Source: a virus (Duplodnaviria > Caudoviricetes). From it: a stretch of DNA of 64,000 nt. Within the stretch, counting starts at the first letter, position 1, and the number at the start of each line of letters is the position of its first letter. The notes beneath the pieces are model-generated. The model had not been told where the DNA came from. It was given only the letters and a program-made list of their open reading frames with translations, and ran no database searches. The stretch lies in the IMG/VR virus record IMGVR_UViG_3300042196_000418. The stretch is one strand, 5' to 3'. Below, one piece after another: positions 40,073 through 44,432 of this stretch. The translations under genes and the position numbers were made by a program.

Positions 40073-40960
40073 CTACACCGCCGCCGTTCCGACCATCGCC
40101 CCGAAGAAGGGCGCGCCGCTCTCGTTGAGGCCGATGTACGTGACCACCACGACGACGTCCATCGCGGTCTGCGCCGATTCGAAGCGAACGAACGTGTCGA
40201 TCGCGTTGGTCGCGAAGAGATCGCCCGGCACGTCGCCCGACTGCACGAACTGCGAGCGGTTGCCGATCTTGATGTCGTTCACGATCCAGTCGGCAGCGCC
40301 GCCGGCCGTGCCCGCGTTCGAGATCACGAAGCGGCCGATCTTGAAGACCAGCGTCTGTGGGCGGCCCGTGATCTGTGCCGACTGCGTCGGCAGGATCGGA
40401 ACGCCCGTCGACATCGGGAGGATGTCCCGGTTCGCCTGCGTCGGCATCGGAGCCGCCACCACCGCAGCGCGCGGCGGGAATGGGAAGCCGTCCGGTGGGG
40501 GCAACTGCCCAACCATCGGACCTGTGATGTCGTACCATCCGGCCGTCTGCGGCGGCGCGCCTGTCGGCGACGGCGCGCCTTGTGGAGGCGGGCCTGCCGG
40601 CGCGGGCTGTTGCGGAACCGGAACAGGCACCGGAACAGGAACCTGGACTTGCTGCTGCTGCGCGAGAAGAGCGAGATAGGCTGCGTAGCCGCCGTACATC
40701 GCGTACGGATCGACGACCCCGTACCCGCCGTACATCGCATACGGGTCATAGGCCGGGTACGGATAGGGATAGCCGCCGTAGCCGAAGCCGCGGCCACGAC
40801 CATGGCCGTCCCAGCGACCTTGCATGCCGGGACTGCGACCGCGACCGCGACCGCCGAAGCCGCCGCCGCCGCCACCGCCACCGCCACCGCCACCGCCATG
40901 CTGCTGGCCGACGACGTCGTACCACTGGCCAAGGAGTGCGTAGATTTGCTGTCCGTCCAT
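40073..40960 (-). CDS. Putative major shell/capsid protein copy 5 (Gly/Tyr-rich arm)
   Basis: Conserved C-domain PPRAAVV...MVGTAAV; capsid role is inference. Confidence 0.8.
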   Translation of the reverse strand: MDGQQIYALLGQWYDVVGQQHGGGGGGGGGGGGGFGGRGRGRSPGMQGRWDGHGRGRGFGYGGYPYPYPAYDPYAMYGGYGVVDPYAMYGGYAAYLALLAQQQQVQVPVPVPVPVPQQPAPAGPPPQGAPSPTGAPPQTAGWYDITGPMVGQLPPPDGFPFPPRAAVVAAPMPTQANRDILPMSTGVPILPTQSAQITGRPQTLVFKIGRFVISNAGTAGGAADWIVNDIKIGNRSQFVQSGDVPGDLFATNAIDTFVRFESAQTAMDVVVVVTYIGLNESGAPFFGAMVGTAAV

Positions 40961-41132
40961 GAGAGATGACCTTTCGATTCAGCTAGCGATCAGTGGACGC
41001 GCGCTTGCGCCACCTGGAGCAGGACGAACCTCGCGCTCGAGGTCGGCTCGCGGTCGAGCGCTCAAAGCGCCGAAAAACGTCGACGCCCTCAGCGCAGGAT
41101 CGTGTAGCTCGTGTCCGTTCATTTGTTTCCGC

Positions 41133-41172
41133 GCTCGGACGAGGAATCGAACCCCGCACGCCACTGCCGAGC
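41133..41172 (-). ncRNA. Minimal tRNA-like element (acceptor-like stem + T-arm; copy C)
   Basis: Minus strand: GCTCGG..CGGGG-TTCGATT-CCTCG-T-CCGAGC. Confidence 0.45.
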
Positions 41173-41183
41173 TGCCACTGCGA

Positions 41184-41762
41184 CTAGACCGCCGCCGTAC
41201 CGACCATCGCCCCGAAGAAGGGCGCGCCGCTCTCGTTGAGGCCGATGTACGTGACCACCACGACCACGTCCATCGCGGTCTGCGCCGACTCGAAGCGAAC
41301 GAACGTGTCGATCGCGTTCGTCGCGAAGAGGTCACCCGGGACATCGCCCGACTGAACGAACTGCGAGCGGTTGCCGATCTTGATGTCGTTCACGATCCAG
41401 TCGGCAGCGCCGCCGGCCGTGCCCGCGTTCGAGATCACGAAGCGACCGATCTTGAACACCAGCGTCTGCGGACGGCCGGTGATCTGTGCCGACTGCGTCG
41501 GCAAGATCGGAACGCCGGTCGACATCGGGAGGATGTCCCGGTTCGCCTGCGTCGGCATCGGCGCGGCAACCACCGCAGCGCGCGGTGGGAACGGGAACGG
41601 ATACCCGTTCGGCGGCGCCATCATCTGCTGCGGCATCGGAGGCGGCGCCATCATCTGCTGGGGCGGTCCGCCGTTGGCCGCTGCCGCTGCTGCGGCCTGC
41701 CCGACGATGTCGTACCACTGGCCAAGGATTGCGTAGGGGTTTCCGTACTGCTGTCCGTACAT
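41184..41762 (-). CDS. Putative major shell/capsid protein copy 4 (short Pro/Gln/Met arm)
   Basis: Start MYGQQ at 41762 with AGGA upstream; same C-domain. Confidence 0.8.
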   Translation of the reverse strand: MYGQQYGNPYAILGQWYDIVGQAAAAAAANGGPPQQMMAPPPMPQQMMAPPNGYPFPFPPRAAVVAAPMPTQANRDILPMSTGVPILPTQSAQITGRPQTLVFKIGRFVISNAGTAGGAADWIVNDIKIGNRSQFVQSGDVPGDLFATNAIDTFVRFESAQTAMDVVVVVTYIGLNESGAPFFGAMVGTAAV

Positions 41763-41844
41763 GGTGATTGTCCTTCCTGTTCCTCGTCGCGTTTCGGCGC
41801 GAGAGGATTGTTCCTCGCACACCACTACAGAGCTGCTGTTTCGA

Positions 41845-42531: not shown

Positions 42532-42555
42532 GGGTTGCCTTCCTTTTTTCCTTCG

Positions 42556-42613
42556 AGCTCCGCCGCCGAATCGAACGGCGACCTTGTCGCGTAAACCGCG
42601 ACCCCTCGGAGCT
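42556..42613 (-). ncRNA. tRNA-like intergenic structured element (copy B)
   Basis: Near-copy of 39653-39708; middle hairpin differs (GTCGCG-GTTTA-CGCGAC) but still pairs; identical T-arm. Confidence 0.5.
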
Positions 42614-42621
42614 GTTCGCGA

Positions 42622-43725
42622 CTAGACCGCCGCCGTACCGACCATCGCCCCGAAGAAGGGCGCGCCGCTCTCGTTGAGCCCGATGTACGTGACCACGACG
42701 ACCACATCCATCGCTGTCTGCGCCGCCTCGAAGCGAACGAACGTGTCGATCGCGTTGACGGCGAACAGGTCACCCGGCACGTCGCCGGACTGCACGAACT
42801 GCGACCGGTTGCCGATCTTGATGTCGTTCACGATCCAGTCGGCAGCGCCGCCGGCCGTGCCCGCGTTCGAGATCACGAAGCGCCCGATCTTGAAGACCAG
42901 CGTCTGCGGGCGGCCCGTGATCTGTGCCGACTGCGTCGGCAAGATCGGTACGCCCGTCGACATCGGGAGGATGTCGCGGTTCGCCTGCGTTGGCATCGGA
43001 GCCGCCACCACCGCGGCGCGCGGCGGGAACGGGAAGCCGTCCGGTGGAGGCAACTGCCCAACCATCGGGCCCGCGAGGTCGTGCCACTGACCGATGGTCC
43101 CAGTGCCGCTGAACAAGTCGCTCCACCAGTTGCCCTGACCCTGCCTCGACTGGCGCGACGTCCCGGTGACGCCGCTTGGACCGCCACGATGCTCGCGCAC
43201 CGTCGGAGTCCCCGTCGGAGCCGGCGTCCCCGAGTACGCGCGCCGCTGTTCCCAGTGACCGGCAACGTTTCCGCGAGCAGGCACCCAGATGTACTGCCCC
43301 GACGGATCCGTTGGGATCCGATCATCAGGTCGGCCAGGCTGGGGCTGATACGGAGGCTGCTGATACGGAGGCTGCATCTGCGGGTACCACGGGTTCTGCT
43401 GCCGCCACCATGCAGGCTGCTGCCACCACCACTGCGGCGGTTGCTGCTGCCCGTACGGCGACTGCCCGTACGGCGGTTGCTGCCCGTAGCCGTACGGAGG
43501 CTGCTGTCCGTACGGAGGCTGCGGCACTCCCTGCGGCGGCGACTGCCACCACTGCCGCTGCTGCCATTCGGGCACGCGCTTCCAGTCGTGCTTCGACTGA
43601 CGCCACCACGGTGGCGGCTTACGCCACCACTTCTTGTCGTCGTCGTCGTCGCCGCTGACGAGATCGACCCACTGGCCGATCAGCGCCTGGACCTCGTTCG
43701 GTCCCATGTACCCGCTCGACGCCAC
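42622..43725 (-). CDS. Putative major shell/capsid protein copy 2 (long Gln/Pro/Trp arm)
   Basis: Same C-domain with two substitutions (FAVN, FEAAQ). Confidence 0.8.
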   Translation of the reverse strand: MASSGYMGPNEVQALIGQWVDLVSGDDDDDKKWWRKPPPWWRQSKHDWKRVPEWQQRQWWQSPPQGVPQPPYGQQPPYGYGQQPPYGQSPYGQQQPPQWWWQQPAWWRQQNPWYPQMQPPYQQPPYQPQPGRPDDRIPTDPSGQYIWVPARGNVAGHWEQRRAYSGTPAPTGTPTVREHRGGPSGVTGTSRQSRQGQGNWWSDLFSGTGTIGQWHDLAGPMVGQLPPPDGFPFPPRAAVVAAPMPTQANRDILPMSTGVPILPTQSAQITGRPQTLVFKIGRFVISNAGTAGGAADWIVNDIKIGNRSQFVQSGDVPGDLFAVNAIDTFVRFEAAQTAMDVVVVVTYIGLNESGAPFFGAMVGTAAV

Positions 43726-43727
43726 GG

Positions 43728-44432
43728 TTACACCGCCGCCGTACCGACCATCGCCCCGAAGAAGGGCGCGCCGCTCTCGTTGAGGCCGATGTACGTGACC
43801 ACCACGACCACGTCCATCGCGGTCTGCGCCGACTCGAAGCGAACGAACGTGTCGATCGCGTTCGTCGCGAAGAGGTCACCCGGGACATCGCCCGACTGAA
43901 CGAACTGCGAGCGGTTGCCGATCTTGATGTCGTTCACGATCCAGTCGGCAGCGCCGCCGGCCGTGCCCGCGTTCGAGATCACGAAGCGACCGATCTTGAA
44001 CACCAGCGTCTGCGGACGGCCGGTGATCTGTGCCGACTGCGTCGGCAGGATCGGAACGCCGGTCGACATCGGGAGGATGTCCCGGTTCGCCTGCGTCGGC
44101 ATCGGAGCCGCCACCACCGCAGCGCGCGGCGGGAACGGGAACATCTCCGGAGGAGGACCCATCGGCATCTGCGGTGCCATCTGCGGCGGCGGCGGCGGAG
44201 CGGCCGGAGACGGCCCGACGATCGGGGCGCCCGTCGTCGGATCGGCACCCAGGATCATGTACCCGGGCGGAAGGCCGTACGGCAGCGGACGCTGGACGGC
44301 CATGCTACCGCCATACGCGCCGTGCTGCCTCGGCCACTGGCCCACCTGCGGTCCGACGATGTCGTACCAACCGGCGAGAAGCGCCTGCACCTGGCCAGGG
44401 TTGAGCTGCTGCTGATAAGGGCTATATGCCAT
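43728..44432 (-). CDS. Putative major shell/capsid protein copy 1 (Pro-rich arm)
   Basis: Start MAYSP at 44432 with AAAGG RBS; same C-domain. Confidence 0.8.
   Translation of the reverse strand: MAYSPYQQQLNPGQVQALLAGWYDIVGPQVGQWPRQHGAYGGSMAVQRPLPYGLPPGYMILGADPTTGAPIVGPSPAAPPPPPQMAPQMPMGPPPEMFPFPPRAAVVAAPMPTQANRDILPMSTGVPILPTQSAQITGRPQTLVFKIGRFVISNAGTAGGAADWIVNDIKIGNRSQFVQSGDVPGDLFATNAIDTFVRFESAQTAMDVVVVVTYIGLNESGAPFFGAMVGTAAV

Follow-up and report, generated by a model that had tools for sequence, protein, structure and literature searches.

A tandem array of five genes joining type-specific low-complexity arms to a near-invariant, homogenised domain in a putative giant phage-like element

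Results

Five tandem genes end in the same domain

We analysed an array of five genes carried by the virus record IMGVR_UViG_3300042196_000418 (Duplodnaviria; Caudoviricetes), a stretch of 64,000 nucleotides (nt) with a GC content of ~63% that is called the window hereafter. These five minus-strand open reading frames (ORFs), g5 to g1, lie head to tail and span positions 40073-44432. Each encodes an N-terminal arm and a common C-terminal domain (C-domain), and an additional gene, g0, encodes an arm only. The genes and their products, with lengths in amino acids (aa), are the following:

43728-44432, minus strand: g5, arm type A; 234 aa, with a Pro/Met/Gln-rich arm of 97 aa; C-domain at 43731-44141
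42622-43725, minus strand: g4, arm type B; 367 aa from a GTG start, with a Gln/Pro/Trp/Tyr-rich arm of 230 aa; C-domain at 42625-43035
41845-42531, minus strand: g3, arm type D; 228 aa, with an RG/GW/GY-rich arm of 91 aa; C-domain at 41848-42258
41184-41762, minus strand: g2, arm type E; 192 aa, with the shortest arm (55 aa); C-domain at 41187-41600
40073-40960, minus strand: g1, arm type C; 295 aa, with a Gly/Tyr/Gln/Pro-Val arm of 158 aa; C-domain at 40076-40486
39717-40070, minus strand: g0, arm-only gene; 117 aa, Gly/His/Trp/Tyr-rich, with the C-terminal sequence ...VHALLGQDLD

The array genes are translationally coupled, g4 starting 2 nt past the g5 stop and g0 2 nt past the g1 stop; the others possess strong Shine-Dalgarno ribosome-binding sites of the AGGAAGG or GAAAGG type. 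The third-position GC of the array (0.79-0.82) is at the top of the window range. From FPFPPRAAVV to the stop, 137 residues are the same in all five copies except for three amino-acid differences, T>V and S>A in g4 and a terminal V>I in g3. Sequence comparison thus bears out the exceptions listed in the original prediction, made by a model from the letters alone, which had counted about 134 residues.

Collapsed or expanded repeats could mimic such an array, and the breaks of short-read contigs do fall within the repeated domain. However, contigs of even depth from run X1, possibly the source sample, lead without a single difference from every unique arm into the C-domain ends on either side, each copy has its own synonymous variants, and the same ordered array is present in at least ten further contigs from other samples, some of them of 230-500 kb. 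On this evidence the array is real, and an assembly artefact is hardly credible.

The C-domain is under strong purifying selection and evolves in concert

Among the five C-domain DNA copies, 44 of 411 nt are variable; about four of these changes are replacements and the rest are synonymous. Within the window, pairwise synonymous divergence (dS) is 0.17-0.29 (0.05 for g2 and g5), while non-synonymous divergence (dN) is 0-0.014. Such dS values indicate that the copies are neither recent duplicates nor freshly converted, and their contrast with the very low dN that purifying selection on the protein does most to keep them alike.

The original prediction had pointed to a mosaic of shared synonymous variants as a sign of gene conversion, and this mosaic was seen in full. 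When the aligned C-domain segments were tested for conversion tracts, tract-like runs were found for two pairs: g2 and g5 differ at 8 sites and are identical but for one site from nt 40 to 413 (run test p = 0.0006), and g3 and g4 have 7 informative sites in common, with an 11-site run (p = 0.003). The PMVGQLPPPDG junction shared by g1 and g4 corresponds to a 57-nt repeat with 81% identity. In addition, 7 of the 18 informative sites of the window C-domains conflict with the main tree.

Comparison with related elements extends this evidence well beyond what had first been noticed. In eight of them the C-domain is 94-97% identical, while flanking orthologues are only 38-85% identical (dN of 0.14-0.33 and dS of 0.6-1.8 for the flanks compared with element L007). 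Substitutions specific to one array are present in all its copies, for example D/L/S/C in L007 and E/Y/M/A in L020, and more than 20 changes are common to all four copies of L042. dS is 0.05-0.4 within genomes (0.6-0.7 for pairs that include the divergent type B copy of L007) and 0.2-0.8 between genomes, and sharing an arm type does not bring two C-domains closer in dS. In a maximum-likelihood tree of C-domain DNA, one clade each is formed by the copies of the window (100/99), L042 (100/100), L020 (100/99) and L025 (99/94). Labelling this tree by genome takes 12 changes (minimum 9, shuffled mean 23.3), compared with 20 by arm type.

Altogether, the C-domains group by genome and the arms keep orthology by position, the pattern of concerted evolution. 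Since the arms are positional orthologues and the C-domain is homogenised, conversion stops at the arm/domain junction. Gene conversion shows in tract-like runs and in clades by genome, but it is not the main cause of the invariance, as dS of 0.17-0.29 against dN of 0-0.014 shows: very strong purifying selection is the main force, with concerted evolution acting alongside it.

The arms are conserved by position and mostly share a short motif

The arms consist for 62-71% of G, P, Q, Y, W, R, S and N residues, which agrees with their first description as low-complexity tracts. They had also been held to be largely unrelated and interchangeable, and neither statement stood. Indeed, four of the five begin with one motif (ALLGQWYDIVG), found as LLAGWYDIVGPQVG in g5, GYMGPNEVQALIGQWVD in g4 and ALLGQWYDVVG in g1, the g3 arm being devoid of a W-x-D motif, and each arm type is tied to its gene position from one element to the next.

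The gene order in these elements is type A (g5-like, LLAGWYDIVGPQVG), type B (g4-like, GYMGPNEVQALIGQWVD, with QQPPYG repeats), type C (g1-like) and then g0; the type C arm consists of GGRG/YGG/QQQQ/PVPVP followed by GWYDITGPMVG. This A-B-C(-g0) order is kept in at least seven elements, with g0 kept downstream of the array in L007. Positional orthologues of g5 were found in L007, L009, L010, L019, L020, L022, L025 and L042; a type D (g3-like) orthologue is present in L042, and types D and E recur in other metagenome proteins. Arms of the same type are 27-61% identical to the window arm, compared with 10-33% for arms of different types, and the type B arm varies from 127 to 269 aa among elements.

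More generally, the real reading frames of the window contain 11 copies of the motif G-x-W-[YVH]-D-[IL]-[VTA]-G, all of them between 28.2 and 44.4 kb. It is located at the N-terminus of four array proteins, ahead of the domain in g4 (GQWHDLAGPMVGQ) and g1 (GWYDITGPMVGQ), and, as G-x-W-x-D-[IL]-[VI]-G, in two large neighbours:

32202-34013, minus strand: 603-aa protein, family unknown; three tandem motif copies (GGPWVDLVG) spaced by ~22 aa
27911-30073, minus strand: 720-aa protein, family unknown; two motif copies (AGWVDIIG, AGWYDIVG)

We infer that the G-x-W-x-D motif is a docking element for the domain or for a lattice. Judged from sequence, W-Y-D-I-V-G may alternatively be a protease cleavage site; docking fits somewhat better because one neighbour has three copies ~22 aa apart.

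The domain defines a large family with a predicted jelly-roll fold

None of the five array proteins could be assigned to a family with Pfam (E up to 1), PHROGs, NCBIfam or PADLOC, a chance match (E 0.078) was all that PDB sequences yielded to a profile of the domain, and our literature search found no published description of the domain family or of the array. The family itself is large. A profile search against 1.84 billion cluster representatives returned 1,856 proteins at E <= 0.001, in which the domain occurs one to five times (~1,850 clusters at 50% identity), and only two of 143 family representatives contain a Pfam domain, both being KaiC/AAA fusions. Beyond the array, the window holds eight further domain copies, five of them fused and three in single-domain proteins, which are 33-49% identical to the array domain:

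12566-14704, plus strand: P0124, 712 aa; five tandem diverged domain copies, 33-49% identical to the array domain
14793-15392, minus strand: P0125, 199 aa; helical N-terminus and one domain, 39% identical
53407-54006, plus strand: P0126, 199 aa; same architecture as P0125, 35% identical
22198-22698, plus strand: P0127, 166 aa; diverged single domain

A distant member of the family was found outside these elements, in a tailed phage (L090):

L090, 7538-8536: P0266, 332 aa; the short motif of the arms is at its N-terminus too (FLDAWHAIVGAP)

Its neighbours encode ThyX, an SNF2 helicase, a PAPS-reductase-like protein and DNA polymerase A.

The AlphaFold2 (AF2) model of the domain is an eight-strand jelly-roll-type beta-sandwich with two short helical turns and a predicted local distance difference test score (pLDDT) of 85. 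The nearest shapes are three ESM Atlas clusters of uncharacterised ~190-aa proteins, mostly labelled viral (Uroviricota), with TM scores of 0.72-0.73; Foldseek gave nothing below E 0.001 against PDB and BFVD. With VIA-align, the best match is the SPV1 capsid protein with a Z of 7.4 (root-mean-square deviation 3.3, 118 residues aligned), the stated background of the tool being Z 7-8. GOLD domains, the C-terminal domain of Clostridium perfringens enterotoxin, the HHIV-2 and HCIV-1 capsid proteins and the tail-fibre tip of phage 7-7-1 are within one Z unit of it. There are also weak matches to TNF-like folds (RANKL, probability 0.60; Bc2L-C, 0.51).

The domain is predicted to associate with itself

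Three copies of the domain were modelled as a homotrimer with a custom 88-row alignment. The three runs scored 0.45, 0.45 and 0.26 (median 0.45), compared with 0.00 for the best of three controls, with contacts agreeing at 79% or more and a partner pLDDT of at least 75. In calibration, 20 of 30 proteins with a structure solved as a pair of one chain passed this mark, as did 1 of 23 solved as single chains; these figures are only roughly valid here given the custom alignment and the three copies. The predicted contact is head to tail, with one face formed by residues 19-29, 42-60, 94-100 and 129-136 and the other by residues 63-69, 80-103 and 119-120. The latter bears the most conserved signature of the family, WIVNDIKIGNRSQF.QSGD.PGD.F. 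The model thus suggests that the domain self-associates, probably as trimers. As for the mixed-subunit shell that had been proposed for these proteins, the idea of a shared assembly module with diversified arms fits the trimer model and the conserved motif at its interface, but nothing supports a closed shell, hexamers or pentamers.

The fold matches also raise the question of whether the domain is a major capsid protein, i.e., a vertical single jelly-roll as in internal-membrane viruses (Sphaerolipoviridae, Portogloboviridae). The paralogues would then occupy quasi-equivalent lattice positions with their N-arms pointing toward the membrane or the genome, and P0124 and the other paralogues would form special capsomers. 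Viral capsid jelly rolls do make up about 15 of the 50 best VIA matches (SPV1, Z 7.4; HHIV-2/HCIV-1, Z 6.8; P23-77 VP17, Z 5.9), several nearby products seem membrane-anchored by eye, no HK97-type genes were seen in the window, and the fused multi-domain forms resemble double or triple jelly-roll capsid proteins. However, a Z of 7-8 is the background of the tool, the passing model is a trimer and not a capsomer-type arrangement, no packaging ATPase of the FtsK/HerA type was found among the ~40 window ORFs scanned with Pfam, a tailless jelly-roll virus of 290-500 kb in bacteria is without precedent, and P0266 belongs to the replication module of a tailed phage. We consider this explanation unlikely.

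Genomic surroundings of the array

The array lies in a co-oriented block whose gene order is largely kept in a related element. Glycosyltransferase, methyltransferase and GDP-mannose pathway genes are located on both sides of this central block, and searches of the window for tRNAs and Rfam families came out empty. Pfam and PHROGs matched none of ten neighbours at 27.9-45.2 kb, and nothing usable came from PDB sequence searches with three large neighbours or from the ESM Atlas with two neighbours. Four smaller genes flank the array:

37910-38506, minus strand: the most conserved neighbour, 75-85% identical among elements
38452-38985, minus strand: 177-aa Trp/Tyr/Pro/Arg-rich protein (...WWPRWYPYWDPQWFMYWRQLYDYYGGDAYPEYAEWARD...)
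44667-45194, minus strand: member of a paralogous pair just upstream of the array
45558-45980, minus strand: the other member of this pair

The first contains the motif GHGDCDRLVAW, which is suggestive of a papain- or transglutaminase-like cysteine protease; Pfam and NCBIfam gave no match for it. The C-terminal module of the 177-aa protein is conserved, and it is duplicated in the L007 orthologue (L007 12221-13030). The paralogous pair has a common start (...ITEEHLHHMARRHHATMQKLDGIRE...), is duplicated in L007 too, and its products look like membrane proteins.

Several non-coding features accompany the array genes:

42553-42614, minus strand: 62-nt intergenic element after the g4 stop
39649-39710: second copy after the g0 stop, 82% identical

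This element contains GUUCGAUUC and folds as a two-hairpin structure, but shuffled sequences fold just as well as the intergenic hairpins (z -0.2 to -0.9). The T-arm-like word GGTTCGATTCC also occurs 3' of the g2 stop (41143-41153) and is not enriched within the window. Finally, an upstream block on the minus strand is common to g1 (40961-41080) and g5 (44440-44610) and reads gctcgaccgcgag ... cctcgag.gcgagg ... gcgc.agcgcgcg ... cgaaaggt. This block may serve both genes as a promoter or regulatory region; matches to sigma-70 promoters or terminators were not in excess.

Pieces of the domain occur in exported bacterial mini-proteins

The chromosomes of six Actinomycetota metagenome-assembled genomes (MAGs), including Thermoleophilaceae and Solirubrobacterales (contigs of 0.2-2.4 Mb), encode ~90-aa proteins that contain pieces of the domain:

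L001, 9956-10339, plus strand: mini-protein gene
L003, 9875-10201, plus strand: mini-protein gene
L002, L004, L005 and L006, near 9750-10200: mini-protein genes

All mini-proteins bear a signal peptide. Their mature part (~55 aa) consists, in the main subfamily, of domain residues 70-86 followed by residues ~31-58, in swapped order, and in one variant residues 40-57 are joined to residues 21-35. At the DNA level, these pieces are 87-97% identical to the array genes over 29-58 nt, and in the proteins they overlap both predicted interface faces. Proteins of this kind form 12 clusters. A locus next to nrdF is common to three MAGs, the loci being different in the others. As far as samples can tell, the bacterial chromosomes do not carry the domain itself: its profile was not found in 401 sampled Actinomycetota genomes, and no full domain was found in five of the mini-protein MAGs. 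The mini-proteins may represent host mimicry or a decoy, and their signal peptides hint that the domain acts outside the cytoplasm.

This hint bears on a possible intracellular role. The array proteins could be scaffolds in which an oligomerising sandwich and sticky arms (RGG, GYG, QQPPYG, Trp-rich) condense a replication or assembly compartment, as nucleophosmin-type proteins do. The arm composition is of the phase-separating type, the model supports self-association, weak fold matches to nucleoplasmin-like pentamers were found (7vmf, 7wim, 3t30, 7vrr), and the large neighbours with the W-x-D-I-V-G motif would be possible clients. But these fold matches are at noise level, the array proteins resemble no known phage compartment protein, and the export signals point outside the cytoplasm, which makes such scaffolds improbable.

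The segment copied by the mini-proteins also contains a variable patch of the domain. In L042 (5184-8888) and L043 (8001-8387), the C-domain is only 82-83% identical to that of the window, while their flanks are no more distant from the window than those of other elements. The changes are concentrated in the linker (residues 9-20) and in a 7-residue patch (46-52), where TLVFKIG is replaced by ARAFRGD or AQAYQCN. The patch is replaced in all four copies of L042 (ARAFRGD in three, VRAFAGR in type B) and in the single copy recovered from L043, and it is the main entropy peak in array-like sequences. An arms race would be one reading of the patch and the mini-proteins taken together.

A variable patch (residues 46-55) on a fixed scaffold also resembles a specificity site. 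The domain could thus be non-structural, a binding module for a host molecule or a glycan in host-takeover or counter-defence effectors, kept invariant by an invariant target. P0266, encoded between SNF2 helicase and PAPS-reductase-like genes in the replication region of a tailed phage, would suit such a role, as would the two family members fused to KaiC/AAA ATPases. Nonetheless, three to five co-oriented, coupled and conversion-homogenised copies are better suited to co-assembly than to five effectors acting on one target, and the conserved signature is on the predicted subunit interface; we find this alternative doubtful.

Discussion

In this study, we describe an array in which a homogenised domain is joined to arms that are specific to each gene position. 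The reading that we favour, with about an even chance of being right, is that the array proteins are co-assembling structural subunits of the particle of the element and are probably exposed on its surface. The five genes and g0 would form a conserved operon of a giant (~230-500 kb) uncultured phage-like element of soil and sediment. The window is part of a 288-kb contig with relatives of 430-500 kb, and some sediment runs contain 67-86% of the locus. Each protein would be composed of the N-terminal motif (ALLGQWYDIVG), a disordered type-specific arm and a ~120-residue jelly-roll beta-sandwich. The common domain would associate head to tail with itself, probably in trimers, and every paralogue would enter one assembly through it; this is why the domain would stay near-invariant and be homogenised by conversion. 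The existence of fused forms with two to five domains was counted in favour of co-assembly. The arms, in turn, would drift in length and sequence as positional orthologues. With respect to location, we infer that the proteins are most likely on the particle exterior, as a decoration or fibre layer whose arms make up a heterogeneous coat.

Several observations weigh against a role as particle subunits. First, exposed virion parts usually vary, yet no segment of the neighbourhood is more conserved than the domain. Second, among the window proteins scanned (~40 ORFs with Pfam), no capsid, portal, terminase or tail family was found, so that particle-making by the element is not established. Moreover, tblastn against 50,697 cultured phage genomes gave no match, and an IMG/VR scan gave no relative. 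Matches to solved structures do not rise above noise (best Z 7.4; Foldseek E > 0.03). Finally, the ordinary tailed phage that encodes P0266 has this gene in its replication module and not among its virion genes.

Among known systems, C1q A/B/C and the BclA-type exosporium nap proteins of Bacillus offer a parallel in which a short N-terminal attachment motif, a variable repetitive stalk and a ~135-aa C-terminal trimer-nucleating sandwich are combined, with paralogues side by side and glycosylation genes nearby; the trimer model of the array domain also passes. However, the array shows no sequence match or convincing fold match to them, and its paralogues have identical globular domains that conversion homogenises. 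Nor do the arms form a collagen stalk, as no Pfam Collagen match was found (E up to 1) and they lack a sustained Gly-X-Y periodicity.

HHIV-2 VP4/VP7, P23-77 VP16/VP17, SPV1 and the cement proteins of tailed phages are likewise small eight-stranded sandwiches with N-terminal arms and at least two paralogous subunits per lattice. Single jelly-roll capsid and cement proteins give the best though weak structural matches (Z 5.9-7.4, at background level). The known capsid paralogues diverge in sequence, while those of the array are identical, and the genome of the element is more than ten times larger. Nucleoplasmin and nucleophosmin also combine a small oligomerising sandwich with low-complexity tails, but these tails are C-terminal and acidic, the proteins are eukaryotic and pentameric, and their matches are at noise level.

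Shell proteins of bacterial microcompartments (BMC) were rejected as candidates: Pfam (E up to 1) gave no PF00936 or PF03319 match for the five proteins, and the predicted fold is almost entirely an all-beta sandwich, with about seven to eight strands. BMC-H/T/P arrays resemble the present one by analogy only, in their tandem small conserved paralogues and fused tandem-domain forms; they differ by an alpha/beta fold and by the lack of long disordered arms. The five proteins are probably parts of one common assembly, of a type that has so far gone undescribed.

The large family defined by the domain is covered by no model of Pfam, PHROG or NCBIfam and has no relative of solved structure. In this clade of giant elements, the slowest-evolving segment of the neighbourhood is joined to low-complexity arms, which are among the fastest-evolving sequence known. 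The combination of selection, conversion confined to the domain and orthology of the arms is an unusually clean natural case of compatibility maintained among co-assembling paralogues. Should the proteins prove to be on the particle, they would give a route to the virions of giant soil elements, and the domain could serve as a conserved marker or epitope to detect such elements.

The secreted mimics suggest an Actinomycetota host and a possible new defence by molecular mimicry. One could go further and imagine that, in giant soil elements, invariant jelly-roll trimers with three to five arms of the phase-separation type coat the particle or build a compartment, that the exported host mini-proteins act as decoys of assembly or adsorption, and that the elements escape by replacing the patch in every paralogue through conversion. 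This scenario is speculative and, in our opinion, rather unlikely as a whole. If true, it would represent an arms race waged through the concerted evolution of a multigene structural family.

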